A DNA stretch of 64,000 nt. Source: Polaromonas sp. Lineage in GTDB: Bacteria > Pseudomonadota > Gammaproteobacteria > Burkholderiales > Burkholderiaceae_C. The stretch lies in the NCBI GenBank assembly GCA_031424795.1, contig JANPIC010000133.1, positions 12,634 through 76,633 of the forward strand, read 5' to 3'. The notes below the pieces were generated by a model. It was not told the DNA's origin and searched no databases. It saw only the letters and a list, made by a program, of their open reading frames with translations. The position numbers and the translations under genes were made by a program. Positions 5,076 to 61,239 of the stretch are shown here, piece after piece (the stretch's first letter is position 1; each line of letters begins with the position of its first letter).

Positions 5076-6008
5076 TTGACTTTAGCAATGTCTAGCGAGC
5101 GACCACCCACCATCTCCCCCAACGCCGCTGCGCACTGGCAGCGCATTGCACCTGCTGCAACGCCGTGGCTGCACGAAGAAGTAGCCAGCCGCATGGTGGA
5201 TCGTTTGCAATGGATCAACTTACAGCCCAAAACGTGGGCGCACTGGGGCGCTGTGCGAGGCGGGCAGCAGGCGCATGTGGCATTGCTTGAAAAGTATCCA
5301 GATTCAACCTATTTTTTGCCTCTAGCCGGTGAATTTATTGCCGATAAAGCTATTAAAAATATAGCAAATTATGCGAACTCCAGCAGTAAATGGCAGCTGT
5401 CTAACTTGTTTAAAGCCAAGCCAAAAGTAGATTACTCATATCCAGCCGATAGCACGGTTGACATGCTGTGGGCGAACATGCACTTGCACAACGCACTTGA
5501 TCCGCAGATGTTGATAACGCAGTGGCACAAAGCCATAGCGACGGACGGATTTTTGATGTTCTCCTGCCTGGGGCCAGACACCCTGCGCGAACTGCGTGGT
5601 ATGTACGACAAGCTGGGTTGGCCAGTGCCTAGCCACCAATTTACCGACATGCATGATTGGGGCGATATGCTCATCCAAGCCGGCTTTGCCGAGCCCGTGA
5701 TGGACATGGAGCGCATTGTGCTGACGTACGAAACGCCACAAAAGCTACTGGAAGATTTGCGTGAATTAGGCCGAAACTTGCATCCAGACCGATTTCCTGC
5801 CTTGCGTGGCAAAGCTTGGAAAGCCGAGCTAGAAGCCGCTTTGGTCGAACATTTGGCTGACCCGGCTGAGGGTGGCCGGTTAAAGCTGACCTTCGAAGTC
5901 ATTTACGGCCATGCGATGAAGCCGAAGCCAAGGGTTAAGCTGAGTGAGCATAGCGCGGTGTCATTGCGGGATATGCGGGAGATGTTGCACGGTAGCAGAG
6001 GGCGCTAG
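5076..6008 (+). CDS. BioC-like class I SAM-dependent methyltransferase carrying an in-frame repeat-derived insert
   Basis: 310 aa. The LWANMHLH...GFLMFSCLGPDTLRELR block is typical of betaproteobacterial BioC-like methyltransferases. Residues ~PLAGEFIADKAIKNIANY are encoded by repeat copy A. Confidence 0.55.
   Translation: MTLAMSSERPPTISPNAAAHWQRIAPAATPWLHEEVASRMVDRLQWINLQPKTWAHWGAVRGGQQAHVALLEKYPDSTYFLPLAGEFIADKAIKNIANYANSSSKWQLSNLFKAKPKVDYSYPADSTVDMLWANMHLHNALDPQMLITQWHKAIATDGFLMFSCLGPDTLRELRGMYDKLGWPVPSHQFTDMHDWGDMLIQAGFAEPVMDMERIVLTYETPQKLLEDLRELGRNLHPDRFPALRGKAWKAELEAALVEHLADPAEGGRLKLTFEVIYGHAMKPKPRVKLSEHSAVSLRDMREMLHGSRGR
5318..5370 (-). repeat. Dispersed two-hairpin repeat, copy A (reverse), in-frame inside the BioC-like methyltransferase
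   Basis: gcctctagccggtgaatttattgccgataaagctattaaaaatatagcaaatt matches the family consensus GCTATAAATAAAATAGC-NN-TTTAGGCAATAAATACGCCGGCTAGAGGC on the reverse strand. Confidence 0.85.
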
Positions 6009-6103: not shown

Positions 6104-8251
6104 TTACTTAGCGCGAACGGTGCGAGCCTTGGCCATATCACGCGGCACAAACACTTTGCCGCCATTGCCTGGCTTGGCAGCTGGTTTAGCAAACGTTGGT
6201 TTGGCGAAGCCAGGCTTAGCGAATGCTGGTTTACGGTCAGCAAAGTCGCCACGTGGAGCGAAGTCACCGCGAGGGGCGAAATCTTTACGCGGGGCGAAGT
6301 CGCCGCGCTCAGCACGGTCACCACGAGGCGCAAAATCACCACGTGGAGCGAAGTCTTTACGAGGAGCGAAGTCACCACGTGGGGCAAATTCTTTACGTGG
6401 CGCAAAGTCACCGCGAGGTGCGAAATCGCCGCGAGGAGCTGAATCACCGCGTGGAGGAAAGCCACCGCCGCTATTGCGGTCGTTGAAACCACCTTTGCGA
6501 ACATAGCTGTCTGGTGCGCGAGCGTTGTCAGAAGGGCGTCCAGCGAAACGATCACCGAAACGGTCGCCCTGCGGAGCAGCGAAACCACCGCCTTGAGGCG
6601 CGCGGTCAGCGAAGCCTCCACGGTCACCACCAAAGTTACCACCGCCACCGAAACCGCCTTGGCGAGGTGCAAACTTTCGGTCACGGCCAGCGCCGCCGCC
6701 ATGTCCACGGTCGCCACCAAAACCACCGCGGTCTGGGCCGCCGAAGTTACCAGGGCGTGACTCAGGGAAACGTTGTTTTGGCTCTAAGCCAGGAATGACC
6801 TCTGCTTTGAATGGGGTGCGTGTGAACTGCTCGATGTCCATGATACGGCGACGGTCTCGGATTTCAGCAAAGCTGACAGCGATACCGTCACGGCCAGCAC
6901 GACCTGTACGACCAATACGATGGGTGTAATCCTCGGCTTTCATTGGCAGGCCAAAGTTGAACACGTGGCTGATCGATGGCACGTCAATACCGCGTGCTGC
7001 CACGTCGGTTGCCACCAAAATTTGAACTTGACCTTCGCGCAAAGCTTGCAAGCGGCGGTTACGGATACCTTGGTTCAAAGCGCCGTGCAAAGCAACCGCG
7101 CTGAAACCTTCTTGTTGCAGGTCGTTGGCCAAACCGTCGCACTCGATCTGGGTGCTGGCAAACACGATGGCTTGCTTGATGTTGGTGTCGCGCAACCAGT
7201 GGTCGAGCAACTTGCGTTTGTGCTGAGAATTGTCAGCCCAGAACAACGATTGCTTGATGTTTTGGTGCTTGTCTTGCGGGCTGTCGATGGTGATGCGCTG
7301 TGGCTCACGCATCACACGGCCAGCGAGCTGCTGGATGCGTGGTGCAAACGTGGCGCTGAACATCATGGTTTGTTGGCGGCCGCTGGTCAACTGGTTGACT
7401 TCTGCGAGATCGTCTGAGAAGCCCAAATCGAGCATACGGTCGGCTTCGTCAACGACCAAGAATTTCACTTTGTCGAGCTTCAACTGGTGTGAACGCTGCA
7501 AGTCAAGCAAACGGCCTGGGGTTGCCACCACCAAGTTAGCGTTTTGCAACTTGGCCAATTGCAACTGGTAAGGCATACCCCCCACCACGTTGGCAATGCG
7601 CAAACCTTTGCAGTAGCGCACCAAATCAATCGCGTCGTTGGCAACTTGTTGTGCCAATTCGCGGGTCGGGCAAAGAATCAAAGCGCCTGGCGTGGCCGGT
7701 GTGAAATTGCGGAAATTGGTCGGGTCTTTGCGTTTAGCGCGTTTTGGAGGCGCATCGCCACGGGCTTCGGCTTCAGCGCATGCTGCTTCAAACTCAGCGC
7801 GTTCGGCAGCTGCTTCTTGTTCTTGCTGTTTCAGCAAGGTGTGGATCACAGGCAGCAAAAAGGCGGCAGTTTTACCTGAACCGGTTTGGCTGGACACCAT
7901 CAAGTCAATAAATTTCTTCGGTGTGCCGTCAACAGCATCCGCTGGCAAAGCCAATGGAATTGTTTTCATCTGCACGGTGGTGGGTTGTGTGAAACCCATT
8001 TCTTTCGTCGCTTGAATCAGCTCATCAGCCAAGCCAAGTGCGATAAAGCCGTTTGGCAATTTGGCAGCTTCTTCCGCGGCCAAAGCTTTGGCTGCGGCCA
8101 CTTCATCTACTGCATTTTCAGTAGCAATTGAAGCAGTAAATTCGCCGGCTATGGCAGTATTTAATGTTAATTCGTTGTCGGTCTGAGATTCAAAAGTCGT
8201 TGTCATAGAGTCGGTCATACATAGCCGCCACCAATTTCGGTGCGGTTCCAT
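6104..8251 (-). CDS. DEAD-box ATP-dependent RNA helicase (RhlE-like) with a long repetitive RGG/PRGDFA C-terminal tail
   Basis: Motifs SQTGSGKT, PTRELA, VVDEADRMLD, SAT and HRIGRTGRAG. The real start is probably the ATG at 8218 or 8206. Confidence 0.9.
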   Translation of the reverse strand: MEPHRNWWRLCMTDSMTTTFESQTDNELTLNTAIAGEFTASIATENAVDEVAAAKALAAEEAAKLPNGFIALGLADELIQATKEMGFTQPTTVQMKTIPLALPADAVDGTPKKFIDLMVSSQTGSGKTAAFLLPVIHTLLKQQEQEAAAERAEFEAACAEAEARGDAPPKRAKRKDPTNFRNFTPATPGALILCPTRELAQQVANDAIDLVRYCKGLRIANVVGGMPYQLQLAKLQNANLVVATPGRLLDLQRSHQLKLDKVKFLVVDEADRMLDLGFSDDLAEVNQLTSGRQQTMMFSATFAPRIQQLAGRVMREPQRITIDSPQDKHQNIKQSLFWADNSQHKRKLLDHWLRDTNIKQAIVFASTQIECDGLANDLQQEGFSAVALHGALNQGIRNRRLQALREGQVQILVATDVAARGIDVPSISHVFNFGLPMKAEDYTHRIGRTGRAGRDGIAVSFAEIRDRRRIMDIEQFTRTPFKAEVIPGLEPKQRFPESRPGNFGGPDRGGFGGDRGHGGGAGRDRKFAPRQGGFGGGGNFGGDRGGFADRAPQGGGFAAPQGDRFGDRFAGRPSDNARAPDSYVRKGGFNDRNSGGGFPPRGDSAPRGDFAPRGDFAPRKEFAPRGDFAPRKDFAPRGDFAPRGDRAERGDFAPRKDFAPRGDFAPRGDFADRKPAFAKPGFAKPTFAKPAAKPGNGGKVFVPRDMAKARTVRAK
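6240..6455 (-). repeat. Tandem 18-bp repeat, 12 units, coding (hexapeptide PRGDFA-like) within the DEAD-box helicase tail
   Basis: Units read by hand: gcaaagtcgccacgtgga, gcgaagtcaccgcgaggg, gcgaaatctttacgcggg ... gctgaatcaccgcgtgga. They are contiguous and in phase. Confidence 0.9.
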
Positions 8252-9211: not shown

Positions 9212-10552
9212 ATGACTAACCCTTCGACGATTCCTTCAATTTCATTCATTTTTTCACTGGTATTTGCAGCGCTTTTAGTGGCTGGTTTGGTGGTCAAATA
9301 TTGGCTGGCAACACGCCAAATCCGTTACGTGGCGCGGCACCGCAACGCTGTACCACCAGCATTTGCGCAAAATATTACCTTAGCAGCGCATCAAAAAGCG
9401 GCTGATTACACGCTGACGAAATCGCGTTTCGGCTTGCTGGAGCTGGCTTTTGGTACGGCAGTTTTGGTTGCTTGGACGCTGCTGGGCGGGCTGGATCTGA
9501 TAAATACCTGGTTACTGGGTTTGATTGGCAATTCTTACGCAGGTTTAGCGCAGCAGTTGGCGCTGTTCGTTAGCTTCGCAGTGATCAGCAGCATCATCGA
9601 GCTGCCGTTCACGCTGTACCAAACCTTTGTGATTGAAGAGCGTTTTGGCTTTAACAAAATGACGTTCAAACTGTGGTTGATTGACGGCATCAAATCCAGC
9701 TTGATTGGCGCCTTGATTGGCCTGCCCCTTGCCGCGCTGATTTTGTGGCTGATGGGCGCTGCGGGCAACTTGTGGTGGCTGTGGACATGGTGCGTGTGGA
9801 TGGGGTTTAACCTGCTGCTCTTGGTGCTGTACCCAACGGTGATTGCCCCGATGTTTAATAAATTCAAACCTTTGGAAGACGAAGCGCTGAAAGCCCGTGT
9901 GACGGCGCTGATGCAGCGCTGTGGCTTCGCTGCCAAAGGTTTGTTTGTGATGGATGGCAGTAAACGCAGCGGCCATGCCAACGCGTATTTCACCGGTTTT
10001 GGCGCTTCTAAACGCGTGGTTTTTTACGACACTTTGCTGGCCAAATTGTCACCCGCAGAGGTGGACGCTGTGTTGGCGCATGAGTTGGGGCATTTCAAAC
10101 ACAAACATGTGATCAAGCGCATCGTTGCGATGTTTGCGATGAGCTTGGCGGGGTTTGCACTATTAGGCTGGCTGTCAACGCAAGTGTGGTTTTACACAGG
10201 CTTAGGAGTCATGCCTAATTCTGCAGCCGTGACCGGCGTGCCAAACAACGCTTTGGCTTTGCTGTTATTGATGATGGCGATGCCAGCGTTCACATTTTTC
10301 ATCTCGCCACTCTTTGCACAACTGTCCCGCAAACATGAGTTTGAAGCAGATGCCTACGCCATCAAGCAAACAGCGGGGAGTGACTTGGCCAGTGCGCTGC
10401 TCAAGCTGTATGAAGACAATGCCTCAACGTTGACGCCAGACCCTTTGTTTGTGAAGTTTTATTACTCGCATCCACCTGCTTCAGAGCGCTTGGCTCGTAT
10501 GGGCTTCACCCCTGGTAGTTTGAGTAGCGCATCTGCAGGGCAGTTGGCCTGA
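9212..10552 (+). CDS. M48-family (Ste24/HtpX-like) membrane zinc metallopeptidase
   Basis: Polytopic N-terminus, HELGHFKH (HExxH) motif and a downstream EFEAD motif. Confidence 0.85.
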   Translation: MTNPSTIPSISFIFSLVFAALLVAGLVVKYWLATRQIRYVARHRNAVPPAFAQNITLAAHQKAADYTLTKSRFGLLELAFGTAVLVAWTLLGGLDLINTWLLGLIGNSYAGLAQQLALFVSFAVISSIIELPFTLYQTFVIEERFGFNKMTFKLWLIDGIKSSLIGALIGLPLAALILWLMGAAGNLWWLWTWCVWMGFNLLLLVLYPTVIAPMFNKFKPLEDEALKARVTALMQRCGFAAKGLFVMDGSKRSGHANAYFTGFGASKRVVFYDTLLAKLSPAEVDAVLAHELGHFKHKHVIKRIVAMFAMSLAGFALLGWLSTQVWFYTGLGVMPNSAAVTGVPNNALALLLLMMAMPAFTFFISPLFAQLSRKHEFEADAYAIKQTAGSDLASALLKLYEDNASTLTPDPLFVKFYYSHPPASERLARMGFTPGSLSSASAGQLA

Positions 10553-13824: not shown

Positions 13825-13926
13825 AGTTTCCTCTTATGATCATGGCAGCACCAACGTCGGGATTGACATATGCTCGATTCATTTACAAAGAAAACTGTAA
13901 AAAAGAGCGGTCGGCCAGAGGATCGA

Positions 13927-16875: not shown

Positions 16876-16940
16876 AAAGCAATAAATATGGCTCTAACCG
16901 GTGTATTTATTGCCTTAAATGCTATTAAATTTATATTAAA
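16876..16940 (-). repeat. Dispersed repeat, copy B (reverse), intergenic, 2 nt after the TM2 gene stop
   Basis: aagcaataaatatggctctaaccggtgtatttattgccttaaatgctattaaatttatat. Contains the GCAATAAATA/TATTTATTGC hairpin arms. Confidence 0.8.
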
Positions 16941-20580: not shown

Positions 20581-20652
20581 AAGCAATGAATATGCCTGCA
20601 GCCGGCGTATTTATTCATTATATAGCTATAAAAATTATAGCAATTCTAGAGG
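20581..20652 (-). repeat. Dispersed repeat, copy C (reverse), intergenic, 3 nt after the dehydrogenase stop
   Basis: aagcaatgaatatgcctgcagccggcgtatttattcattatatagctataaaaattatagcaattctagagg. Confidence 0.85.
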
Positions 20653-22494: not shown

Positions 22495-22581
22495 TGGTGC
22501 CGGAGGCCGGAATCGAACCGGCACGGGTCTTACCCCGCGGGATTTTGAGTCCCGTGCGTCTACCAATTTCACCACTCCGGC
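22495..22581 (-). tRNA. tRNA-Leu (anticodon CAA), type II with long variable arm, CCA encoded
   Basis: The reverse complement GCCGGAG-TG-GTGAAATTGGTAGACGC-A-CGGGA-CTCAAAA-TCCCG-CGGGGTAAGACCCGT-GCCGG-TTCGATT-CCGGC-CTCCGGC-ACCA folds as a cloverleaf. Confidence 0.9.
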
Positions 22582-28032: not shown

Positions 28033-30378
28033 TTGCTGATGACCTATTCTCTAAATACGCTTAACAACACGCAATCAAGTTCTGAGCCCTCCGCAGCTGA
28101 GCGATTTATTCAAGAAGTTGCCTTGGTCTTAGGTGGGTTGGTACTTGTTTTTTGGGTGTTGTCACTGCTGAGCTACACGAGTAACGATGCGGCGTGGTCA
28201 ACCACTGGTTTAGGCACGACAACTCAAAATTGGGGTGGTCGCATTGGTGCGAATGTTGCGGATTTGAGTTATTATTTTTTTGGCTTCTCAATTTGGTGGT
28301 GTATCGCTGCGCTGGCTAGTGCATGGCTTGCGTGGTTGGCGTCTTGGATGCGTCACGAAAAAATGCATCAAACATTTTTGCAAGACCAGCCGAGGTTTTA
28401 CATGTCAGTACGTGTGCGATTTTGGCTTGGCTTGGTTCTGTTGCTAGGCGTTAGTACAGCGATAGAGTGGGCGCGCTTGTACCGATTTGAGCCACATTTG
28501 CCTGGCCATGCTGGTGGTGTTTTAGGATACATTTTGGGCCGATTTAGCGTTGCTTCGCTGGGCTTTACGGGTGCTGCATTGGCTTGCATCGGCGTAGGTG
28601 TGATGGCCGCATCGATGGTGTTTAATTTTTCTTGGAGCAAAACTGCTTCTAGGCTGGGCGAGTGGCTAGAAGCCTTTATTGCAGCACGGCGACAAAAAAG
28701 TGAAGTGGCGCAAGACATGGCACTCGGCAAAGCTGCAGCGCGTGAACGCGAGGTGGATTTGCAAGATGAGCGCGTAGTGATTGCGGATCATCACCCCACA
28801 CCTGTGCGTATTGAGCCTGTGCTGGCCGAGGCGCCGCCTAGCTTGCGAGTGGCAAAAGAGCGTCAAAAGCCTTTGTTCACCGATATGCTGGACAGCAAAT
28901 TGCCGCAGGTTGATTTGTTAGATGGTCAAGTTACTCGCCAAGAAACCGTGTCTCCAGAAACTTTAGAGATGACCTCGCGCTTGATCGAGAAAAAACTCAA
29001 AGACTTTGGTGTCGAAGTTCGCGTTGTTTTGGCCTCACCTGGTCCTGTCATTACCCGCTATGAAATCGAACCTGCCGTTGGTGTCAAGGGCTCACAAATT
29101 GTGGGTTTGGCCAAAGACTTAGCGCGTTCGCTCAGTTTGGTGTCGATTCGCGTGGTCGAGACGATTCCTGGCAAAAACTACATGGCCTTGGAGTTGCCCA
29201 ATGCGCGACGTCAATCTATCAAACTCAGTGAAATTTTGGGTTCGGACGTCTATAACGAAGCCAAATCTTTGCTCACCATGGGCTTGGGTAAAGACATCAT
29301 TGGCAATGCGGTGGTGGTTGATTTGGCAAAAATGCCACACGTTTTAGTGGCTGGTACAACGGGCTCGGGTAAATCAGTTGGTATCAACGCCATGATTTTG
29401 TCTTTGCTCTACAAAGCTGAAGCATGCGATGTGCGACTGTTGATGATTGACCCAAAAATGCTTGAAATGAGTGTTTACGAAGGCATTCCGCACCTTTTGG
29501 CTCCGGTCGTGACCGACATGCGCCAAGCCGCGCACGGCTTGAACTGGTGTGTGGCTGAAATGGAGCGACGCTATAAGCTGCTCAGCAAAATGGGTGTGCG
29601 TAACTTGGCGGGCTACAACGCCAAAATTGACGAAGCGAAAGCGCGCGAAGAGTTCATTTACAACCCGTTCAGCTTGACGCCTGAGTCACCTGAGCCGCTA
29701 GGTCGGGAACCGCACATCGTGGTGGTGATCGACGAGTTGGCTGATTTGATGATGGTTGTAGGCAAGAAAATCGAGGAATTAATAGCACGCTTGGCACAAA
29801 AGGCGAGGGCTGCAGGTATTCATTTGATTTTGGCGACGCAACGCCCCAGTGTGGATGTGATTACCGGTTTGATCAAAGCCAACATCCCTACACGTATTTC
29901 CTTCCAAGTTAGCAGCAAAATAGATAGCCGGACTATTTTGGACCAAATGGGTGCAGAGGCGCTTTTGGGCATGGGCGACATGCTTTATATGGCCAGCGGC
30001 ACGGGGCTGCCCATCCGTGTGCACGGCGCGTATGTCAGCGACGAAGAGGTGCACCGCGTTGTATCTTATCTAAAGAGTCAAGGCGAGCCGGATTATATTG
30101 AAGGCGTGCTGGAAGGCGGAACGGCCGATGGTGATGGTGAATTACTGGATGGTATGGGTGGTAACGGTGGCAGCAATGAAAAAGACCCTATGTACGACCA
30201 GGCTGTCGAGGTGGTTTTGAAGAACCGCAAAGCCAGTATTTCACTCGTTCAACGGCATTTAAAAATTGGCTATAACCGAGCAGCAAGATTGGTGGAAGAT
30301 ATGGAAAAAGCAGGCATGGTCAGCGCGATGAGCAGCAACGGGCAGCGAGAAATTTTGGTGCCGCAGCGTGCGGAGTAA
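28033..30378 (+). CDS. ftsK: DNA translocase FtsK
   Basis: N-terminal TM helices, a linker, the motor domain with GTTGSGKS and the C-terminal gamma wHTH ([21 protein letters not shown]). The start could be TTG 28033 or ATG 28039. Confidence 0.95.
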
Positions 30379-30385
30379 GTTAAGC

Positions 30386-31069
30386 ATGTTTAAATATTTT
30401 GCTATGTTATTTGTAGCTGTTCAGGCAATAAATACGCCGGCTGCAGGATTAAATGCACTTGAAAACTTTTTGAAATCTACGCAATCTGGTAAAGCTGAGT
30501 TCAGCCAAGTGGTAACTAGCCCAGCTAAGACGGAAGCCAAATCGGAATCTAAGTCCGATTCAGCTGAAAAATCAGTTGCCAAAGTCAAAACCTCTAGCGG
30601 CACATTTGAATTTTCACGACCTAATCGGTTTAAGTTTGTTTACAAAAAGCCGTTCGAGCAAACCATCGTCGCCGATGGCACCACGCTGTGGTTGTTTGAC
30701 GTAGATTTGAACCAAGTCACCGCCAGAAAGCAAGCCCAAGCTTTAGGCTCTACACCTGCAGCTTTGATAGCCACGGCCGCGAGTTTGAAGGCTTTGGAAG
30801 CTGAATTCAAACTGCAAGACGCGCCTGATGCCAATGGTCTGCAATGGGTGATTGCCACCCCAAAAGCCAAAGACGGGCAGATTCAGAGCATCAAAGTTGG
30901 CTTGAAAGGTATGGCGGACACGGGTGTTTCGCTCTCGGTTCTAGAGATTTTGGATAGTTTCGGTCAGCGTTCGGTGATTAATTTTGCCAATATTGAGCGA
31001 AATGTAACTTTTAGCGCTGACAACTTCAATTTCAAACCGCCAGTGGGAGCGGATGTGATTCGGCAATAA
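30386..31069 (+). CDS. lolA: Outer-membrane lipoprotein carrier protein LolA
   Basis: Signal peptide, then LENFLKSTQSGKAEFSQ... Conserved ftsK-lolA-rarA order. The signal peptide is encoded by repeat copy H. Confidence 0.85.
   Translation: MFKYFAMLFVAVQAINTPAAGLNALENFLKSTQSGKAEFSQVVTSPAKTEAKSESKSDSAEKSVAKVKTSSGTFEFSRPNRFKFVYKKPFEQTIVADGTTLWLFDVDLNQVTARKQAQALGSTPAALIATAASLKALEAEFKLQDAPDANGLQWVIATPKAKDGQIQSIKVGLKGMADTGVSLSVLEILDSFGQRSVINFANIERNVTFSADNFNFKPPVGADVIRQ
30397..30447 (+). repeat. Dispersed repeat, copy H (forward), encodes the LolA signal peptide
   Basis: ttttgctatgttatttgtagctgttcaggcaataaatacgccggctgcagg. The stop-generating TAG positions of the consensus are altered (TTcAGG, CTgcAGG). 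Confidence 0.85.
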
Positions 31070-31094: not shown

Positions 31095-32369
31095 ATGGTA
31101 AATACTCCGCCGCTGGCAGAGCGGATGCGCCCCACCAAGCTGTCTGAAGTCATTGGGCAGCAGCATATTTTGGGCGAAGGCATGGCGTTGCGCATTGCTT
31201 TTGAGTCTGGACAGCCACACAGCTGCATTCTTTGGGGGCCGCCTGGGGTGGGGAAGACGACGATCGCGCGGTTGATGGCGAATGCATTTGATGCGCAATT
31301 CATCACCATCAGTGCGACTTTGGGTGGTGTCAAAGACATTCGGGAAGCGGTTGAGCAAGCACTCATTTGGCAAGGTCAAGGCAAACGAACCATCGTGTTT
31401 GTGGACGAAGTACACCGCTTTAACAAAGCGCAGCAAGATGCGTTTTTGCCGCATGTGGAAAGCGGTTTATTGACCTTTATTGGCGCGACGACTGAGAACC
31501 CGTCGTTTGAAGTCAACTCCGCTTTGTTGTCCCGCGCTGCTGTTTACGTGTTGCAACCACTATCACCTGCTAATTTAGAGGAAATTATTGCTCTAGCCAG
31601 CGTATTTTCTGTCTCAATAGCTATAGATAAAGTAGCAATTGACAAATTGGTGGCGTATGCAGATGGTGATGCGAGACGCTTGCTCAACACGTTAGAGAAT
31701 CTCTACATCGCCGCTGAAAAGGAAAAGATAACGACGATCACGGATGCTTGGCTCACCCAAGTGTTAGGCGAGCGCATGCGCCGCTACGACAAAGGCGGCG
31801 AGCAGTTTTACGACACCATCAGCGCTTTGCACAAAAGCGTGCGTGGCTCAGACCCTGATGCGTCGTTGTACTGGTTTGTTCGCATGTTGGATGGTGGGGC
31901 AGACCCGCGCTACATGGCGCGCCGGCTGGTTCGCATGGCCAGTGAAGACATTGGTTTGGCGGATCCGCGTGCGCTATCCATGGCGCTAGATGCTGCCAAC
32001 ACCTACGAACGACTGGGTTCGCCCGAAGGCGAGTTGGCATTGGCGCAATGTGTGATTTATCTGGCAGTTGCTCCTAAGTCAAACGCGGTTTACAAAGCCT
32101 TCAACGCCGTCAAAGCGCACATCAAAAAAGACGGTACGCGACCTGTGCCCATGCATTTGCGCAATGCACCGACCAAGTTGATGAAAGAGCTGGACTATGG
32201 CAAAGGCTACCGTTATGCACATGACGAAGCCGACGGATTTGCCGCTGGCGAGCAATATTTACCAGATGGCATGAAAGATGCTTTGTTCTATGAACCTGTA
32301 GAACGCGGTTTGGAAATCAAGATTGCAGATAAGTTGCGGACGCTGAAAAAATTAAACGCAAGAAATTAA
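31095..32369 (+). CDS. rarA: Replication-associated recombination protein A (AAA+)
   Basis: LAERMRP...GPPGVGKTT, the VDEVHRFNKAQQD motif and a C-terminal MgsA domain. Confidence 0.9.
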   Translation: MVNTPPLAERMRPTKLSEVIGQQHILGEGMALRIAFESGQPHSCILWGPPGVGKTTIARLMANAFDAQFITISATLGGVKDIREAVEQALIWQGQGKRTIVFVDEVHRFNKAQQDAFLPHVESGLLTFIGATTENPSFEVNSALLSRAAVYVLQPLSPANLEEIIALASVFSVSIAIDKVAIDKLVAYADGDARRLLNTLENLYIAAEKEKITTITDAWLTQVLGERMRRYDKGGEQFYDTISALHKSVRGSDPDASLYWFVRMLDGGADPRYMARRLVRMASEDIGLADPRALSMALDAANTYERLGSPEGELALAQCVIYLAVAPKSNAVYKAFNAVKAHIKKDGTRPVPMHLRNAPTKLMKELDYGKGYRYAHDEADGFAAGEQYLPDGMKDALFYEPVERGLEIKIADKLRTLKKLNARN

Positions 32370-36214: not shown

Positions 36215-36287
36215 TTTGCTATTTTTTGCTATAAATAATATAGCTGCTTAGGAAGTAAATACGCCGGCTAGAGGCGTATTTTTAGGC
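36215..36287 (+). repeat. Dispersed repeat, copy D (forward), intergenic after livF
   Basis: tttgctattttttgctataaataatatagctgcttaggaagtaaatacgccggctagaggcgtatttttagg, with hairpin AAATACGCC/GGCGTATTT. Confidence 0.9.
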
Positions 36288-39457: not shown

Positions 39458-39532
39458 TTTAGCTATAAACAATATAGCTATTTAGGCAATAAATACGCCG
39501 ACTAGAGTCTGATTTCATGCTCTAGCCGGTTC
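39458..39532 (+). repeat. Dispersed repeat, copy E (forward), intergenic between the Bug gene and ppc stops
   Basis: ttttagctataaacaatatagctatttaggcaataaatacgccgactagagtctgatttcatgctctagccggt, with inverted CCGACTAGAG/CTCTAGCCGG arms. Confidence 0.9.
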
Positions 39533-43524: not shown

Positions 43525-44367
43525 GTGAAAGTCATCGTGACCCGCCCGCGCCTAGAGGCCGATGTTTGGGTCAAACAGTTGCGGGCTTTGCACTTTGATG
43601 CTGTTGCGCTACCGTTGATTCACATTGGCGCTGCGGCAGATACTGAAAGCGTTAAGTGGGTTTGGCAGAATTTGCACCAATACCGTGCAATCATGTTTGT
43701 CAGCAGCAACGCAGTTCGCTATTTTTACCCCTTAAATATGCCTATAGCCGGCGAATTTATTGACTATTCAGCTATAAAAAATATAGCAAATTTAGACAAT
43801 TCTGCATCCTATCCAAGACTGTGGGCAACCGGACCAGGCACGCGGGACGCCTTGCTGGCGCAGTCTGTGCCTAGCGATTTGATTGATTCGCCCGCTGCAG
43901 ACGCAGCACAGTTTGACTCAGAAGCGCTGTGGAATATCATCAAATATCAAGTCAAACCGGGCGATAAAGTGCTGATTGTGCGAGGCAGCACCCCACATAC
44001 CAAAGATGCTGAAGGGGTTGCCATGAACGGTCGTCCTTGGTTGGCTGACCAACTGACCGCAGCTGGTGTGCAGGTGGATGTTGTGGTTAGCTACCAGCGC
44101 AGCGCTCCAGTTTTTGATGTGTCGGAGCTGGCGCTGATGGCGCAAGCCGCAACGGATCAATCAGTCTGGTTGCTCAGCAGTTCGGAAGCGGTAGCGAATT
44201 TAGCAGCTCATTTAAAGGAGATTCCAGAGCTGAACTTGTCACAAGCCAGAGCCATTGCCACCCACCCCCGCATTGCACAGGCAGCCAGAGACGCTGGTTT
44301 TGGTGTTGTTTACGAGTCACGCCCGCTGCTGGCTGACGTGGCGGCTTCTATAGAATCTCTGCTATGA
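43525..44367 (+). CDS. hemD: Uroporphyrinogen-III synthase with an in-frame repeat-derived insert
   Basis: Sits between hemC and hemX and has a HEM4-like sequence (VIVTRP...). Residues PIAGEFIDYSAIKNIANL are encoded by repeat copy F. Confidence 0.8.
   Translation: MKVIVTRPRLEADVWVKQLRALHFDAVALPLIHIGAAADTESVKWVWQNLHQYRAIMFVSSNAVRYFYPLNMPIAGEFIDYSAIKNIANLDNSASYPRLWATGPGTRDALLAQSVPSDLIDSPAADAAQFDSEALWNIIKYQVKPGDKVLIVRGSTPHTKDAEGVAMNGRPWLADQLTAAGVQVDVVVSYQRSAPVFDVSELALMAQAATDQSVWLLSSSEAVANLAAHLKEIPELNLSQARAIATHPRIAQAARDAGFGVVYESRPLLADVAASIESLL
43741..43793 (-). repeat. Dispersed repeat, copy F (reverse), in-frame inside hemD
   Basis: cctatagccggcgaatttattgactattcagctataaaaaatatagcaaattt. Confidence 0.85.
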
Positions 44368-46859: not shown

Positions 46860-49454
46860 ATGACGCTTATGTCGTTCTGGCATGGTCGGATTAGCTTGCT
46901 TTTTGCAACCTTGTTGGCTTGGGTAATGGGCACTTGGTTGCAGCTGCTGCAAACGTCTTTGAATGATGCTTTATTTTATGCATCATATTTGGCTCTAGCC
47001 GGCGTGTTTGTTGCCTGTATTGCTATAAATGGTAGAGTAAAAAATACGAAAAATAAACACCCATATTTCCACATTTTGTTACCCATTTGCATACTGTTAG
47101 CCAGCGGCTGTGCAGCTTTTGGTTTGACTGGTTTGCGTGCTGTTGCCTACGCCTCGCATCAGCTGTTGCCGGCTTACGAAGGGCGGGACATCCAGGTCGT
47201 CGGGGTTGTCTCTGCCATGCCGCATATCAACGAGATGGGAACACGGTTTCAGCTTGATGTTGAGTCTGCACAATTGCTGACTCTTGCATCTTCAAATACG
47301 GAGCAACTTCAAAGCAAGCAAGTTGTTGAGTTGCCTTCTAAAATTTCACTCAGTTGGTATGGCAGCGTTTTTGGTGCTGTGGAAAATGCGGACGACTTGG
47401 CAACACTGCAGCGCAAACCCATGCCTATTCTTCCCGGTGAACGTTGGCAAATGACGGTACGACTCAAAGCACCGCATGGCAACAGCAACCCAGGCGGTTT
47501 TGACTTTGAACTGTGGCTGTGGGAGCAAGGCATACAAGCGACTGGTTATGTGCGCACGGGCGCAAACGACGTCGCACCCGTACGCATCGCGCAGACCTGG
47601 CAGCATCCAGTTGAACAATTGCGTTACAAAGTGCGAGATGCCATTTTTGCGCGTATGTCATCGCACATGTCACCTTCAGACTCTTTCAAAAATTCAAGTG
47701 AAGCAGGTATCGTTGCCGCTTTGGTGACGGGTGACCAGCAGTCGATTGACCGTGCCGATTGGGATGTCTTTCGCACCACAGGCGTTGCGCATTTGATGAG
47801 TATTTCAGGTCTCCACATCACCATGTTTGCTTGGGGCGCAGTGCTTGTGGTGGGTATGTTGTACAGACGATCAACGCGCTTATGTTTGGCTTACCCCGCA
47901 ACAAACGCTGCTTTGCTGGGCGGTTTGATGCTGGCGACAGGCTACGCGGTCTTTAGTGGTTGGGGTGTGCCATCGCAGCGGACGATTTTGATGCTGGCAA
48001 CGGTAACGTTGCTCAGATTATTTGGCAAACGCTGGCCTTGGCCAACGGTGTGGATGTTGGCTTGCGCCGTAGTGGTTGCGGTTGACCCTTGGGCATTGCT
48101 GCAAGCGGGTTTTTGGCTCAGCTTTGTGGCAGTCGGCGTGTTGTTTGCCACGGATATTTCGACCAATACCCCAAGACTTTCGGATCGCAATCATGCTGAT
48201 GTCGATGCCAATGACAATGCTTCATCAAAATCAAACTTGGCAGCAACATTCAAAAAGAAATTATGGCTAAGTGGTCGTGAGCAGTTCATCATCACCATGG
48301 TGCTTGCACCCTTGACGCTGTTGCTGTTTGGTCAAGTTTCTGTGGTCGGGCTTTTGGCAAATGCTTTGGCCATACCGTGGGTGACGCTGGTTGTGACGCC
48401 CTTGGCAATGCTGGGCGCAATTGCTTCTCCGATGTGGGATTTAGCCGGTTTGGCTGTGCATGTGTTAAGCCGATTTTTAGGTTTACTGGCTGGATTGCCG
48501 TTTGCCACAGTCTCTGTTGCTGTCCCGCATCTGCTGGTGAGTGTTATTGCTATGTTAGGTGGTGTTCTTTTGGTTTTGCCATGGCCTTGGCAACTGCGCC
48601 TTCTCGGCTTCCCTTTGTTGCTGCCAGTTATTTTGTGGCAAGCGCCTCGCCCAGCAGACGGGCAATTTGAATTGATAGCGGCTGATATTGGTCAAGGCAA
48701 CGCCGTCATCATACGAACGGCAAAGCACACGCTGGTGTATGACGCGGGGCCGCGTTATTCCATTGACAGCGATGCCGGTCATAGGGTGTTGGTTCCGCTA
48801 TTGCGGGCGACGAATGAAAGCGTTGATACCGTCATGCTCAGCCACCGCGATATTGACCATTCAGGCGGCATCAAATCTGTGCTGGCCATGCATCCGAAAG
48901 CAAACTTCATCAGTTCAATTGAAAGCACCCATGAATTACAAGTTCTCCGTCCCGTGCAGCGTTGTGTGGCTGGGCAAGCGTGGCAATGGGATGGCGTTGA
49001 TTTTGCTGTGCTTCACCCATCAACGTCAGATTATGAATCGCCACAAAAATCAAACGCCATGAGTTGTGTGTTGCGCATCAGCACGCCACAAGCCAGTGTT
49101 TTGTTGGCTGGCGATATTGAACTGGCGCAGGAAACAAGACTGGTATCAAACCAACAAAACGATGGTTTGAAATTAACGAGTACGATGTTATTGGTGCCGC
49201 ACCACGGCAGCAAAACCTCGTCTAGTGCTGCATTTCTAGAGGCTGTTCAACCGCAGTTTGCGGTCGTGCAAGCGGGTTACAGAAATCGTTTCGGTCATCC
49301 CGCCGCAAATGTTCTGGAGCGCTATAACGGACGCAATATCAAAGTGATAGACACAGCGCATTGTGGAGCAATGCTTTGGAGCAGCTCAACACCGAAGGAA
49401 GCGCGTTGCCAACGTGAAATTGCTGGGCGGTATTGGCATCATCAAGTGCCGTAA
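46860..49454 (+). CDS. comEC: DNA internalization-related competence protein ComEC/Rec2
   Basis: 864 aa. Competence (polytopic) domain with GVAHLMSISGLH, plus a C-terminal metallo-beta-lactamase domain (SHRDIDHSGG). Confidence 0.9.
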   Translation: MTLMSFWHGRISLLFATLLAWVMGTWLQLLQTSLNDALFYASYLALAGVFVACIAINGRVKNTKNKHPYFHILLPICILLASGCAAFGLTGLRAVAYASHQLLPAYEGRDIQVVGVVSAMPHINEMGTRFQLDVESAQLLTLASSNTEQLQSKQVVELPSKISLSWYGSVFGAVENADDLATLQRKPMPILPGERWQMTVRLKAPHGNSNPGGFDFELWLWEQGIQATGYVRTGANDVAPVRIAQTWQHPVEQLRYKVRDAIFARMSSHMSPSDSFKNSSEAGIVAALVTGDQQSIDRADWDVFRTTGVAHLMSISGLHITMFAWGAVLVVGMLYRRSTRLCLAYPATNAALLGGLMLATGYAVFSGWGVPSQRTILMLATVTLLRLFGKRWPWPTVWMLACAVVVAVDPWALLQAGFWLSFVAVGVLFATDISTNTPRLSDRNHADVDANDNASSKSNLAATFKKKLWLSGREQFIITMVLAPLTLLLFGQVSVVGLLANALAIPWVTLVVTPLAMLGAIASPMWDLAGLAVHVLSRFLGLLAGLPFATVSVAVPHLLVSVIAMLGGVLLVLPWPWQLRLLGFPLLLPVILWQAPRPADGQFELIAADIGQGNAVIIRTAKHTLVYDAGPRYSIDSDAGHRVLVPLLRATNESVDTVMLSHRDIDHSGGIKSVLAMHPKANFISSIESTHELQVLRPVQRCVAGQAWQWDGVDFAVLHPSTSDYESPQKSNAMSCVLRISTPQASVLLAGDIELAQETRLVSNQQNDGLKLTSTMLLVPHHGSKTSSSAAFLEAVQPQFAVVQAGYRNRFGHPAANVLERYNGRNIKVIDTAHCGAMLWSSSTPKEARCQREIAGRYWHHQVP
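46991..47035 (-). repeat. Dispersed repeat, copy G (reverse, partial), in-frame near the ComEC N-terminus
   Basis: ggctctagccggcgtgtttgttgcctgtattgctataaatggtag. Confidence 0.7.
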
Positions 49455-49470
49455 CATATGTTTAGCTTAT

Positions 49471-50559
49471 CTATTTTCCCATCTGCTGAGCTACTTCACG
49501 ACCTAGATCAATCACTGACATGGCATAGTAGCTGCTCCAGTTGTAGCGGGTGATGGCGTAAAAATTCTCTGTTCCAGCCACATAGCTAGGCGTATTTTCT
49601 GCAATGCTAGGGTCGCCATTTTGCAGTTCTATCAACGCTAGTGGACCGGTATGTGCAGCACCAACAGCATTCAAATTTGCGCCTTTGGCCATGAAGCTGG
49701 TGACGCTAAACGTAGGCAAAATATCAGGTGCCATCAGTGCATCCATGTCTAATTTTGCAGTATCAAAAGTAACGGGGTAATGCGTTGGCATACCTGGTTG
49801 CCACTTGAAGGCTTTGAAATAGTTGGCAACAGAGCCGATCACATCGGCAGGGCTGGTGAACAAATCGACCTTGCCATCTTCATCAAAATCAATCGCATAT
49901 TTCACCCAGCTGCTAGGCATAAACTGCGGTAAACCCATGGCACCTGCGTAGCTGCCGCGTGGCGACAGCGGGTCAACACCAGAGCGTGAGGTCAGCGATA
50001 AAAAATGTTCTAACTCGCCTTTGAAAAACGCCTGCCGTTCAGCAGCGCGAGGGTGGGATGCAGGGAAGTCAAACGTTAAAGTCGTCAGCGCATCAATCAC
50101 CCGATAGCTGCCCGTATCGCGCCCATAAATGGTTTCAACACCAATGATGCCCACGATGATCTCCGCTGGCACACCGTATTCTTTCTCCGCTTTGGTTAGT
50201 GCCGCCGCATTGTCTTGCCAAAATTTAACGCCTGCCTTGATACGGACAGGGTCAATAAACCGACTGCGATAAACGCGCCAGTTTTTGGCGACACCCCTAG
50301 GAGCTGGCTGCATCAGTCGTGAGATTTGCCCAATGTTCCTAGCTTGACCAATTGCATTCCGTACCCACTCTTTGTCCAAATCGCGCCGTTCAGCAATATC
50401 GTCAGCCATCTGCATGGCCTCTGTGCGTGTGGCGTAGAGTTCGTACTGTGTTGAAGGTTTTGCGCTAACCTGTTTTTTATTGCCAATTTGTGCTGTAGCC
50501 GGCGTATTTATTGCTTGAAATGCTATAAATAGCATAGTAAAAATTAATCTTTGTTGCAT
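49471..50559 (-). CDS. mltB: Lytic murein transglycosylase B
   Basis: GIIGVETIYG and AGAMGLPQFMPSSW motifs. The signal peptide is encoded by repeat copy I. Confidence 0.85.
   Translation of the reverse strand: MQQRLIFTMLFIAFQAINTPATAQIGNKKQVSAKPSTQYELYATRTEAMQMADDIAERRDLDKEWVRNAIGQARNIGQISRLMQPAPRGVAKNWRVYRSRFIDPVRIKAGVKFWQDNAAALTKAEKEYGVPAEIIVGIIGVETIYGRDTGSYRVIDALTTLTFDFPASHPRAAERQAFFKGELEHFLSLTSRSGVDPLSPRGSYAGAMGLPQFMPSSWVKYAIDFDEDGKVDLFTSPADVIGSVANYFKAFKWQPGMPTHYPVTFDTAKLDMDALMAPDILPTFSVTSFMAKGANLNAVGAAHTGPLALIELQNGDPSIAENTPSYVAGTENFYAITRYNWSSYYAMSVIDLGREVAQQMGK
50492..50541 (-). repeat. Dispersed repeat, copy I (reverse on +, forward relative to mltB), encodes the MltB signal peptide
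   Basis: gctgtagccggcgtatttattgcttgaaatgctataaatagcatagtaaa. Confidence 0.85.
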
Positions 50560-58137: not shown

Positions 58138-58145
58138 GGCTAAGT

Positions 58146-58198
58146 TTTGCTATATTTAAAATAGCACTTTAGGCAATAAATACGCCGGCTAGAGGTGT
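58146..58198 (+). repeat. Dispersed repeat, copy J (forward), 8 nt after the relE/parE stop; left border of the low-GC cassette
   Basis: ttttgctatatttaaaatagcactttaggcaataaatacgccggctagaggtg. Shares an identical 29-nt core with copy K. Confidence 0.9.
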
Positions 58199-58243
58199 AA
58201 ATGAGGAATAAATTAGAGGTTTTATGCACTAATCTTGCATTTA

Positions 58244-59374: not shown

Positions 59375-59508
59375 TTTGTTCGAAAAGGTCTAGAAGTAAT
59401 TAGTATTGCAAAAGTTGCAAAAATTTCTTAGAGAGTAATGCAATATAACTTAAATTTCACGAAAACAGCATCAAATTTAGTCAAATTTCACTGTTAAATT
59501 ATTTAATC

Positions 59509-59568
59509 TGCTATAAATAAAATAGCGCTTTAGGCAATAAATACGCCGGCTAGAGGCATATTTAAAGG
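59509..59568 (+). repeat. Dispersed repeat, copy K (forward), right border of the low-GC cassette, upstream of murJ
   Basis: ctgctataaataaaatagcgctttaggcaataaatacgccggctagaggcatatttaaagg. Confidence 0.9.
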
Positions 59569-59667: not shown

Positions 59668-61239
59668 ATGTCCCTGCTCAAATCCGCCTCCGTCATCTCG
59701 CTGCTCACGCTGGTATCCCGCATCACAGGTATGGTGCGTGACCAGTTGATGGCGGCTATGTTTGGGGCTTCGGCTATGACGGATGCGTTTAACGTGGCGT
59801 TTCGGCTGCCGAATATGTTCAGGCGGCTGTTTGCGGAAGGGGCGTTTAGCCAGGCGTTTGTGCCTGTTTTGGGGGCGAGCAAGGTTAAAAACGGGGACGA
59901 GGCGACCAAGGTGTTGGTTGATCGTGTCGCCACCGTGCTGTTTTGGGTGTTGGTGCTCACTTGCGTGATTGGCGTAGCCGCTGCGCCTGCGCTGGTGTGG
60001 GTGATGGCCAGCGGGCTGCAGCAAAACCAGCAGGGGTTTGACGCTGCGGTGTTCATGGCGCGGTGGATGTTTCCTTACATTGGGTTCATGTCGCTGGTGG
60101 CGCTGGGCGCGGGGGTGCTGAACACCTACAGACGCTTTGCCGTGCCTGCCGTGACGCCTGTTTTGCTGAATATGGCGATGATTTTGGCGGCTTGGCTGGG
60201 TGCACCGTGGTTCAAAAGCATGGGGATTCAGCCGATTTACGCGATGTCTATGGGTGTTATTGGTGGTGGCGTGTTGCAGTTGGTGATGCAGTGGCTGGCG
60301 CTGCGCAAAATTGGCATGTTGCCGAAAATTCGCGCCAATTGGGCGGAAGTGAAGGCGGCTTGGGCGGATGCGGGCGTTAAAAACGTGGCTAAATTGATGC
60401 TGCCAGCGCTTCTCGGCGTGGGGGTGGCGCATATTTCGGCGATTATCAACCTGCAGATCGCCTCGCATTTAACGCCCGGCAGTGTCAGCTGGATGAGCTA
60501 CGCCGAGCGGTTGATGGAGTTTCCCACCGCCATGCTGGGCGTTGCGCTGGGCGTGGTGCTGACGCCGCGCTTGGTGGCGGCCAAGGCCAGCGGTGACGAC
60601 GCCACCTATTCCGCCATGATTGACTGGGGGCTGCGGCTGGTGATCTTGCTGGCTGTGCCTTGTACCGTGGCGTTGCTGCTGTTTGCCAAGCCGCTGGTGG
60701 CGACTTTGTTCCATTACGGCGTGTTTTCAAGCAACGATGTGCAGCAGGTGACCACGCCTTTGATGGGCTACGGCGTCGGTTTGATTGGTTTGGTCGCTAT
60801 CAAAATATTGGCGCCCGGGTTTTACGCCAGCCAAGACATCAAAACCCCAGTCAAAATCGCCATTGCTGTGCTCATCATCACCCAGCTGCTGAATATCGCA
60901 CTGGTGCCGCTGTTTGCGCACGCGGGGCTGGCGCTGGCGATTGGCTTGGGTGCGTTGATCAACGCGCTGTGGCTGCTGATTGGTTTGATCAAGCGTGGCA
61001 GCTACCAGCCGTTGCCGGGGTGGGGTAAATTCATCGCCCAAGTCGTCATTGCCAGCGCCTTATTAGGGGTCTGGTTGTGGTGGAGCGCGGGTTATGTTGA
61101 TTGGGTTGCGCTAAAAAGTGACGTTTTTAAGAGAATAATGCTTCTAGCCGGCGCATTAATTGCCTCTGCAGCTATTTATTTTATAGCATTGATGGTTGCT
61201 GGTGTGAAAATCAAGACTTTGCTGCGGGGTCAAGGCTAG
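59668..61239 (+). CDS. murJ: Lipid II flippase MurJ (MviN)
   Basis: MSLLKSASVISLLTLVSRITGMVRDQLMAAMFGAS...FRLPNMFRRLFAEGAFSQAFVP. Confidence 0.95.
   Translation: MSLLKSASVISLLTLVSRITGMVRDQLMAAMFGASAMTDAFNVAFRLPNMFRRLFAEGAFSQAFVPVLGASKVKNGDEATKVLVDRVATVLFWVLVLTCVIGVAAAPALVWVMASGLQQNQQGFDAAVFMARWMFPYIGFMSLVALGAGVLNTYRRFAVPAVTPVLLNMAMILAAWLGAPWFKSMGIQPIYAMSMGVIGGGVLQLVMQWLALRKIGMLPKIRANWAEVKAAWADAGVKNVAKLMLPALLGVGVAHISAIINLQIASHLTPGSVSWMSYAERLMEFPTAMLGVALGVVLTPRLVAAKASGDDATYSAMIDWGLRLVILLAVPCTVALLLFAKPLVATLFHYGVFSSNDVQQVTTPLMGYGVGLIGLVAIKILAPGFYASQDIKTPVKIAIAVLIITQLLNIALVPLFAHAGLALAIGLGALINALWLLIGLIKRGSYQPLPGWGKFIAQVVIASALLGVWLWWSAGYVDWVALKSDVFKRIMLLAGALIASAAIYFIALMVAGVKIKTLLRGQG
61141..61190 (-). 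repeat. Dispersed repeat, copy L (reverse), in-frame in the last TM region of MurJ
   Basis: cttctagccggcgcattaattgcctctgcagctatttattttatagcatt. Confidence 0.75.

Follow-up and report, generated by a model that had tools for sequence, protein, structure and literature searches.

Old copies of a short interspersed repeat as the probable signal-peptide coding sequence of lolA and mltB in Polaromonas and related genera

Introduction

Repetitive extragenic palindromes (REP), with the bacterial interspersed mosaic elements (BIME) and REPINs, are mobilised by REP-associated tyrosine transposases (RAYT). REPs are extragenic by definition and are single imperfect palindromes of 20–40 nt, often arranged as inverted pairs. 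The DNA uptake sequences (DUS) and uptake signal sequences (USS) of the Neisseriaceae and Pasteurellaceae have a core of 9–12 nt, occur about once per kb, sit in tolerant coding positions and require no hairpin pair. Here, we describe an interspersed element of ~55–62 nt in a stretch of 64,000 nt from Polaromonas sp., contig JANPIC010000133.1 (hereafter the window; coordinates of copies are window coordinates unless a locus is named). Two of its copies encode most of the predicted signal peptides of the envelope proteins LolA and MltB.

Closest to this arrangement are two systems in which repeats enter reading frames. Rickettsia palindromic elements (RPE; Ogata et al. 2000, as summarised in PMC2229807) are in-frame repeats within conserved genes. 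In PMC2229807, Delihas describes fusions between miniature inverted-repeat transposable elements (MITEs) and open reading frames (ORFs), YPAL/RU-2 at YPO1552 and ERIC at STM0083, in which the repeat contributes a predicted signal peptide or membrane segment. The fusions described there concern hypothetical proteins within one species or genus and MITEs of 100–170 bp with terminal inverted repeats. What is known, then, are in-frame ‘selfish’ repeats (Rickettsia) and MITE-fusion signal peptides for hypothetical proteins only. What would be new here is the pair of hosts, envelope proteins that are essential and universally conserved, together with an arrangement that outlasts the radiation of the family and copies whose DNA is better conserved than the peptide.

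Like RPE, the Polaromonas element is a hairpin-forming interspersed repeat that lies both between genes and in frame within conserved genes, where extra or replaced peptide is tolerated. HemD has ~19 added residues with the ORF intact, and the bioC-like, rarA, murJ and comEC ORFs stay open through their copies. It has no sequence relation to RPE, however, is about half their size (55–60 against ~100–150 nt) and resides in Betaproteobacteria of the Comamonadaceae type; unlike them, it supplies the predicted N-terminal signal peptides of essential envelope proteins, which appear to co-evolve with the dispersed family. With the MITE–ORF fusions it shares a hydrophobic translation that, read in frame, contributes to a predicted signal peptide or transmembrane domain. 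Unlike those fusions, it has LolA and MltB as hosts and keeps its arrangement across genera. It is also shorter (a unit of ~55–62 nt, against ~100–400 bp for MITEs) and has no evident terminal inverted repeats; its ends, TTTGCTAT.. and ..CATATTTAA, do not form an inverted pair. The element is short, abundant and hairpin-forming with species-specific variants, as are REP/BIME, but it has two different hairpins, occurs singly and has about half of its window copies inside genes, so that it is not extragenic. No RAYT gene is among the ten annotated window proteins. Its likeness to DUS/USS (lineage ‘dialects’, particular frames, tolerant protein positions, DNA-level maintenance) is one of pattern only, whereas a unit of ~55 nt at 0.1–0.28 copies per kb is unlike an uptake sequence. 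Literature searches by sequence strings and by Comamonadaceae combined with REP/RAYT returned no description of the element.

The repeat-coded starts of lolA and mltB

Copies of the element make up most of the first ~20 codons of lolA and of mltB, in one common orientation relative to the gene and one common codon register. The first-pass annotation of this DNA had proposed as much, and a profile search agrees with it, coordinates included. The profile, built with nhmmer from ten window copies with the lolA and mltB copies left out, gave the E values below.

30386..31069, + strand: lolA coding sequence, 227 aa; TIGR00547 at 195.7 bits (cut-off 112)
30397..30451, + strand: repeat copy in lolA, register 1, forward; LolA residues 4–22, YFAMLFVAVQAINTPAAGL, corresponding to the h- and c-regions of the predicted signal peptide; nhmmer E = 3.2e-10
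lolA start codons: ATG TTT AAA TAT TTT GCT ATG TTA TTT GTA GCT GTT CAG GCA ATA AAT ACG CCG GCT GCA GGA, giving MFKYFAMLFVAVQAINTPAAG
49471..50559, − strand: mltB coding sequence, 362 aa; TIGR02282 at 308.1 bits (cut-off 281.4)
50492..50543, − strand: repeat copy in mltB, orientation and register as in lolA; MltB residues 6–23, IFTMLFIAFQAINTPATA; nhmmer E = 4e-10
mltB start codons, minus strand: ATG CAA CAA AGA TTA ATT TTT ACT ATG CTA TTT ATA GCA TTT CAA GCA ATA AAT ACG CCG GCT ACA GCA, giving MQQRLIFTMLFIAFQAINTPATA

The repeat-derived peptides are FAMLFVAVQAINTPAAG in LolA and FTMLFIAFQAINTPATA in MltB, and both copies are identical to the 18-nt core of the element, GCAATAAATACGCCGGCT, at 18 of 18 positions. 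Mature LolA and mature MltB are unrelated (BLASTP E = 21). Given the residues AINTPA, the codon string GCA ATA AAT ACG CCG GCT has P = 1.7e-4 per gene under the codon usage of the window, where ATA accounts for only 11% of Ile codons. This string is common to both genes. The likeness of the two peptides therefore comes from common DNA and has no explanation in protein similarity, and the earlier attribution to DNA identity rather than homology stands. A database protein (P0001) is 100% identical to the window's LolA. In alignments to solved structures, MltB matches its Slt35/SltB relatives from residue ~42 on, and the best alignment of LolA starts at residue ~61.

Read in the signal-peptide frame, the consensus of the family is ...GTT TAG GCA ATA AAT ACG CCG GCT AGA GCC, with TAG as the sole in-frame stop; this codon is CAG in lolA and CAA in mltB. 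The first-pass annotation had held that two consensus stops were changed to sense codons. This is right for TAG, but CTAGAGG is not an in-frame stop: it is read as GCT AGA GG., that is Ala-Arg-Gly, and its change to GCT GCA GGA or GCT ACA GCA removes the Arg.

The lolA ATG is preceded by a GGAG ~10 nt to its 5' side. An alternative in-frame start, GTG at 30368, overlaps the end of ftsK; several database LolA orthologues are annotated from an upstream in-frame start of this kind, and two clade genomes (see below) have ATT or ATA in place of the ATG (L003 at 5733, L010 at 4796). The true start of lolA may be the GTG at 30368; with either start the repeat stays inside the signal peptide.

Judged from their residues, both N termini have the n-, h- and c-regions of a Sec-type (signal peptidase I) signal peptide. 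The n-regions are short and positively charged (MFK with K3 in LolA, or MRSKLSMFK from the GTG start; MQQR with R4 in MltB). The h-regions are YFAMLFVAV in LolA (nine residues, mean Kyte–Doolittle value 2.44) and LIFTMLFIA in MltB (2.80), and the c-region QAINTPA(A/T)(G/A) offers sites that obey the −3/−1 rule at AAG|LNA (LolA residues 21/22) and ATA|QIG (MltB residues 23/24). That the copy stands in frame ahead of the mature domain, and does so throughout the family, is observed directly; we infer that it is the functional signal peptide of LolA and MltB, with predicted cleavage at these two sites. A translation start downstream of the repeat had been named as the finding that would overturn this. 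LolA and MltB are periplasmic in all Proteobacteria, and such a start can be ruled out since it would strip both of their signal peptide; moreover, the ATG within the copy (lolA codon 7, mltB codon 9) is Ile, Thr or Leu in orthologues. The same periplasmic location implies that signals existed before the repeat. A six-frame peptide-pattern scan of the window found no additional copy of the signal-peptide type in a long ORF.

The signal peptides of the window's LolA and MltB have no Cys and hence no lipobox of the form [LVI][ASTVI][GAS]C; Q stands at that position. High-GC relatives have TGC as this repeat codon, and the reading becomes ..L-I-A-A-C-A.. with a lipobox-like IAAC (lolA of L013, L014, L015 and L022; mltB of L081 and L082); the copy with this codon at the lolA 5' end of L013 lies at ~10013–10063. 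MltB is a lipoprotein in E. coli, and a repeat-coded lipobox in MltB is plausible. In LolA, the lipoprotein carrier itself, the lipobox-like position varies (C/S/Y/P/G/Q) and is probably not used as such.

The element in the window

The core has 13 matches in the window at three or fewer mismatches, against 0.08 expected, and a repeat search recovers the family in both orientations. The ten-copy profile finds 18 sites, and we count the family at ~17 copies, a density of about one per 4–6 kb in this genome, as in genomes of the Comamonadaceae type generally. About 6 of the 17 lie clearly outside genes, several between convergent ones, and ~11 overlap ORFs, at least seven of these lying in well-supported genes. 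The consensus of the low-GC lineage is TTTGCTATAAATAATATAGCTGTTTAGGCAATAAATACGCCGGCTAGAGCCATATTTAA. The element has hairpin A, GCTAT-N7-ATAGC, a spacer and a lineage-specific second hairpin (hairpin B) ending ..GGCTAGAGCC/GGC..TATTT. In non-coding copies this second hairpin is AAATACGCC-GGCTAGA-GGCGTATTT or the short GGC-TAGA-GCC.

The non-coding copies form two hairpins, which are more stable on the reverse strand (z = −3.1 and −2.7). In the lolA and mltB copies the 3' arm of the second hairpin is gone, and these copies fold no better than shuffles. Of the non-coding copies, 71% keep hairpin A intact, with a few compensatory pairs, against 27% of those of the signal-peptide type. In the same orientation of the element, the 7-nt loop of hairpin A is either T-rich, ATTTTTT (copies at 5324, 20600 and 43746), or A-rich, AAATAAT (36252, 59534 and 39486); the hydrophobic reading A-I-F-F-I-A comes only from the T-rich loop, which all copies of the signal-peptide type have. 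Rfam searches gave no family for the repeat, either with the whole window at the gathering threshold or with two canonical copies at E ≤ 10, and scans for promoter and terminator consensus sequences around the non-coding copies gave nothing above shuffles.

Distribution and age of the lolA and mltB copies

For lolA, 80 relative loci were compared with the window (81 in all). Ten belong to the same low-GC clade as the window, made up of metagenome-assembled genomes (MAGs) named ‘Polaromonas sp.’ (GC 48–52%), and 70 are outgroup loci from Polaromonas jejuensis, Rhodoferax, Acidovorax, Alicycliphilus, Curvibacter and Hylemonella (GC 54–66%). The ten-copy window profile matches clade loci only; with an iterated family model the count is 238 copies in 1.43 Mb. 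In 69 of the 81 loci (Polaromonas, Rhodoferax, Acidovorax, Alicycliphilus, Curvibacter, Hylemonella) the lolA 5' end holds a forward copy, and the orthologous position is occupied in all ten clade genomes. The lolA 5' ends of the outgroups are homologous copies of the element, for example ATTGCTCTTATTTTGATAGCTGCTTGCGCAATATCGGCGAGGGCTGGAGGC encoding IALILIAACAISARAGG, and copies also lie between genes there. The best 120 LolA relatives (73–100% identity) have the motif FIA.QAINTPA or graded variants of it, and LolA cluster representatives at ≤55% identity have unrelated signal peptides; the repeat scan covered L001–L080, down to ~55–63% LolA identity.

The mltB sample consisted of 80 metagenomic loci plus L081–L084; among the loci listed, outgroups predominate and one is an additional clade locus (L085). 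A forward copy at the mltB 5' end is significant in at least 37 of the 80 metagenomic loci as well as in L081–L084; L082, for instance, has CTGATTGCTATTCTTTTTATAGCTGCTTGCGCATTATCCACGGTAGCCAGAGCC encoding LIAILFIAACALSTVARA. Several of the other metagenomic loci show a sub-threshold motif, and the most distant have unrelated or classical lipobox signals. At the protein level, MltB relatives keep FIA.QAINTPATAQ down to ~73% identity, below which the peptide grades to ILFIAACA(I/L)ST.. (Polaromonas, Rhodoferax).

Copies at lolA and mltB throughout the family, with unrelated signals at ≤55% LolA identity, point to insertions that are old, reaching back to about the depth of the bacterial family, and not to an event of this genome. 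The first-pass annotation had spoken of a repeat recruited as a secretion signal. The h- and c-regions are indeed repeat-encoded, but their arrival is not recent, and earlier signals existed. It had also called for orthologues from repeat-free genomes as a check. In the lineages of the sampled relatives (L001–L080) the family model detects repeat copies, each lineage has a variant of its own and the peptide changes along with it, and the unrelated signals are those of the more distant LolA representatives.

Many outgroups (L030–L080) have a further copy in the short lolA–rarA spacer, ~570–640 nt after the lolA start (for example 10573–10630 in L038 and 10641 in L042). Such genomes hold up to three copies in 1.3 kb: at the lolA 5' end, in the spacer and inside rarA.

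Coding copies follow the dispersed family

The variable part of the element differs between lineages, and coding copies were compared with the non-coding consensus of their own and of other lineages over model positions 24–52. In high-GC loci ‘non-coding’ means copies without a long ORF, and spurious long ORFs confound the classification there.

Low-GC clade: non-coding variable part ..TAGGCAATAAATACGCCGGCTAGAGCC..; identity of lolA copies to own lineage 0.83, to best other 0.56
~55% GC Polaromonas MAGs: ..TCCCGCAGTATTTTATTGGGCTATAGGCC..; lolA own 0.63, best other 0.51
Rhodoferax: ..TACGCATTTTCGACGAGGGCTAGAGCCC..; lolA own 0.70, best other 0.62
Acidovorax: ..TTGCGCTTGTTGAATAAGCGCTAGAGGCC..; lolA own 0.52, best other 0.49

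The consensus of the own lineage fits best for 40 of 50 lolA copies (the majority in four of four lineages) and for 22 of 33 rarA copies (the majority in three of four). The tracking extends to non-synonymous change: after ..IA(A), Rhodoferax and Acidovorax have the codon TGC (Cys), and the 55% GC lineage has CCC (Pro). In coding copies, the one-step neighbours CAG, CAA or AAG stand at the place of the TAG of the low-GC family.

Within lineages, we measured synonymous change as the fraction of codon pairs with identical amino acids that differ synonymously.

lolA, low-GC: synonymous 8.7% in the copy against 38% in the rest (lowest 17-codon window elsewhere 24%); non-synonymous 25% against 9%
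lolA, ~55% GC Polaromonas MAGs: synonymous 25% against 39%; non-synonymous 49% against 17%
lolA, Rhodoferax: synonymous 22% against 44%; non-synonymous 46% against 22%
lolA, Acidovorax: synonymous 15% against 31%; non-synonymous 23% against 8%
mltB, clade (three sequences): synonymous 19% against 42%; non-synonymous 14% against 9%
rarA, internal copy: synonymous 8.9% against 32%; non-synonymous 21.5% against 2.9%

In sum, compared with the remainder of the gene, the copy has 2–4 times less synonymous change and 2–3 times more amino-acid change. It is thus the DNA, and not the peptide, that is maintained. Parallel mutation pressure from GC to AT was considered as the source of the low-GC variant and rejected, since no set of GC-to-AT transitions leads from ..TGCGCAATATCGGCGAGGGCT.. 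to ..TAGGCAATAAATACGCCGGCT...

Preferred explanation and alternatives

We consider it likely that ancient copies of the repeat serve as the signal peptides of LolA and MltB and co-evolve with the dispersed family, probably through gene conversion or re-templating. An interspersed element of ~55–60 nt would have spread through genomes of the Comamonadaceae type, one copy joining the 5' coding region of lolA and another that of mltB before Acidovorax, Rhodoferax, Polaromonas and the low-GC lineage split. The frame used would be [F/I]-A-[I/T]-x-[L/F]-[I/V]-A-x-x-A-x-x-T/S-x-A-x-A/G, in which hairpin A and the spacer supply the hydrophobic core, and the 5' arm and loop of hairpin B supply the c-region with its small −3/−1 residues. 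The Met and the positive charge would come from the first 3–5 codons of the gene itself, and the product would function like any Sec signal peptide. The copies would be kept alike by repeated gene conversion from elsewhere in the family, or through re-templating by mobility machinery that belongs to the element, while selection would purge only changes that break the reading frame or the signal peptide. Copies would then survive in signal peptides, membrane helices and variable loops, places where nearly any hydrophobic or short peptide may be tolerated.

Since LolA and MltB already had signal peptides, tolerated in-frame insertion into a permissive signal-peptide region, or the overwriting of one, is at least as likely as adaptive recruitment. 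Most likely, the copies originated as tolerated insertions into such a region and have been kept repeat-like by a DNA-level process. A broader version of this idea is one we would entertain but stop short of asserting. In it, family-wide homogenisation (gene conversion drive, re-templating or co-evolution with a trans factor), rather than selection on the protein, would dictate the signals of LolA and MltB and the segments of MurJ, ComEC, RarA and HemD, shifting them by lineage from ..IAACA.. to ..IAAPA.. to ..IA.QAINTPA.., with the high-GC element even supplying the lipobox-like IAAC.

Several points weigh against the preferred explanation. The signal-peptide role rests on heuristics together with the known periplasmic location of LolA and MltB. 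Lineage tracking fails for rarA in Rhodoferax and has a weak margin for lolA in Acidovorax (0.02), and the non-coding consensus of these two lineages comes from 5 and 8 copies only, all near lolA. Copies within a lineage are not independent, which reduces the tracking test to ~4 data points. Constraint on translation initiation can also lower synonymous divergence at a 5' end; the rarA copy, however, is internal and shows the same pattern, so that a 5'-end effect is not the whole explanation. Conversion between copies of ~55 nt at ~70–85% identity would operate near the lower limit for RecA-dependent exchange, and no mobility enzyme or binding factor for the element was found in this analysis.

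The alternative that survives best, although we regard it as unlikely, is that the element is a functional nucleic-acid site (a protein-binding site, an uptake or segregation signal, or an RNA element) whose copies in lolA, mltB and rarA are kept for that function, the peptide being a by-product. Low synonymous and high non-synonymous change in the copies fits it equally, as do the lineage ‘dialects’ common to coding and non-coding copies and the long retention of the orthologous position, and the pattern resembles that of DNA uptake sequences in the Neisseriaceae and Pasteurellaceae. If structure were what functions, however, the coding copies would be defective: they mostly lack hairpin A (27% against 71%) and the 3' arm of hairpin B, and their folding equals that of shuffles. 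The element is also five times longer and about five times rarer than known uptake sequences, scans for promoters and terminators gave nothing above chance, and we know of no trans factor for it. As between conversion or re-templating and selection on DNA or RNA, the data fit both; we prefer conversion, with selection as the main alternative.

Very improbable, in our view, is the reverse direction, in which lolA or mltB was the source and the dispersed family descends from a mobile signal-peptide gene segment. Coding copies reach back as far as the family itself can be followed here, and their sequence is near the family consensus. Yet the element has two unrelated signal-peptide hosts and occurs in both orientations inside hemD, bioC, rarA, murJ and comEC; the non-coding copies have a complete second hairpin and 3' tail that are missing from the coding ones; the hemD copy is clearly an insertion relative to homologues; and the low-GC consensus has a stop in the signal-peptide frame. 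Scarcely credible, too, is a recent recruitment in which the repeat landed upstream of both genes within this lineage and gave them new secretion signals. The identity of the core at 18 of 18 positions to canonical copies of the same window would suit it, but a copy occupies the same position in all ten clade genomes and in most outgroup genera, the peptides are conserved over hundreds of orthologue clusters, and two proteins that are periplasmic in all Proteobacteria must have had earlier signals. A resemblance by chance or convergent peptide composition can be dismissed: signal peptides are generally alike in composition, but this does not yield nhmmer E values of ~1e-10 per copy, P = 1.7e-4 per gene with the rare ATA included, or 13 core matches where 0.08 are expected.

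If the co-evolution of old signal-peptide copies with the dispersed family holds, these loci are a natural experiment on the minimal sequence information in a signal peptide and a clear case in which coding and non-coding copies of a short repeat evolve in concert. They would also carry a warning for annotation, because calls of start codons, SignalP and LipoP predictions and dN/dS scans in Comamonadaceae would be distorted at these sites (an apparent LolA lipobox in Rhodoferax is one example). The function or the mobility mechanism of the element becomes testable via a 17-codon segment.

Other copies in the window

Six canonical copies are non-coding.

16880..16940, − strand: between an upstream + strand gene and a lysR-type gene starting at 16946
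20585..20645, − strand: between convergent genes
36224..36283, + strand: between convergent genes; folds as two hairpins
39458..39519, + strand: between convergent genes
58145..58205, + strand: non-coding canonical copy
59506..59565, + strand: best match to the family model; two hairpins, the reverse strand more stable (z = −3.1)

The copies in hemD, the bioC-like gene, rarA, murJ and comEC lie in reverse orientation and use a common frame, ..CTA GCC GGC.. (L-A-G).

43730..43791, − strand: copy in hemD, reverse, in frame, codons 69–89, PLNMPIAGEFIDYSAIKNIAN; nhmmer E = 7.7e-16
5313..5369, − strand: copy in a bioC-like methyltransferase ORF, reverse, in frame, codons 80–98, FLPLAGEFIADKAIKNIAN; nhmmer E = 2.6e-15
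31583..31638, − strand: copy in rarA, reverse, in frame, codons 163–182, EIIALASVFSVSIAIDKVAI
61132..61189, − strand: copy in murJ, reverse, in frame, codons 489–508, RIMLLAGALIASAAIYFIAL; nhmmer E = 3.2e-14
46981..47043, − strand: copy in comEC, reverse, in frame, near the N-terminus, codons 41–62, ASYLALAGVFVACIAINGRVKN; nhmmer E = 6.1e-14
8114..8164, + strand: weaker copy in the N-terminal extension of a DEAD-box helicase ORF, reverse, codons 30–46; nhmmer E = 1.1e-5; start codon uncertain

Aligned with solved HemD structures, the hemD copy is an insertion of ~19 aa; it is also present in the clade loci L004, L005, L009 and L084 and absent from the called hemD of L083. The bioC-like ORF is coding on either side of its copy. 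In these two cytoplasmic enzymes the copies are near-canonical (56–58 bits) and read PIAGEFIDYSAIKNIAN and PLAGEFIADKAIKNIAN. By comparison with E. coli RarA, the rarA copy takes the place of a variable segment, and a copy at this site is found in ~46–64 of the 81 lolA loci across genera, where the positional classification is dominated by the rarA site; in the high-GC loci the positional counts are dominated by the lolA and rarA sites together. In MurJ, which TIGR01695 spans over residues 2–517, the copy forms a hydrophobic C-terminal segment and presumably the last membrane helix. The comEC copy falls within the called comEC genes of L083 and L084. Weaker matches lie in kefC, in the helicase N-terminal extension listed above, at the C-terminus of an rsgA-like gene and in a hemX-like membrane anchor.

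The only Rfam match in the window at the gathering threshold is a tRNA gene at 22498–22581 (−). A second short repeat, GAAAAGCCTTTGATTATARCNTTTTA (family D7), unrelated to the main element, occurs at 13925, 15739, 26037 and 57525 with 73–100% identity. Eight tandem 18-nt units (family D1) occupy 6239–6472, in the C-terminal part of the DEAD-box helicase ORF 6104..8251 (−).

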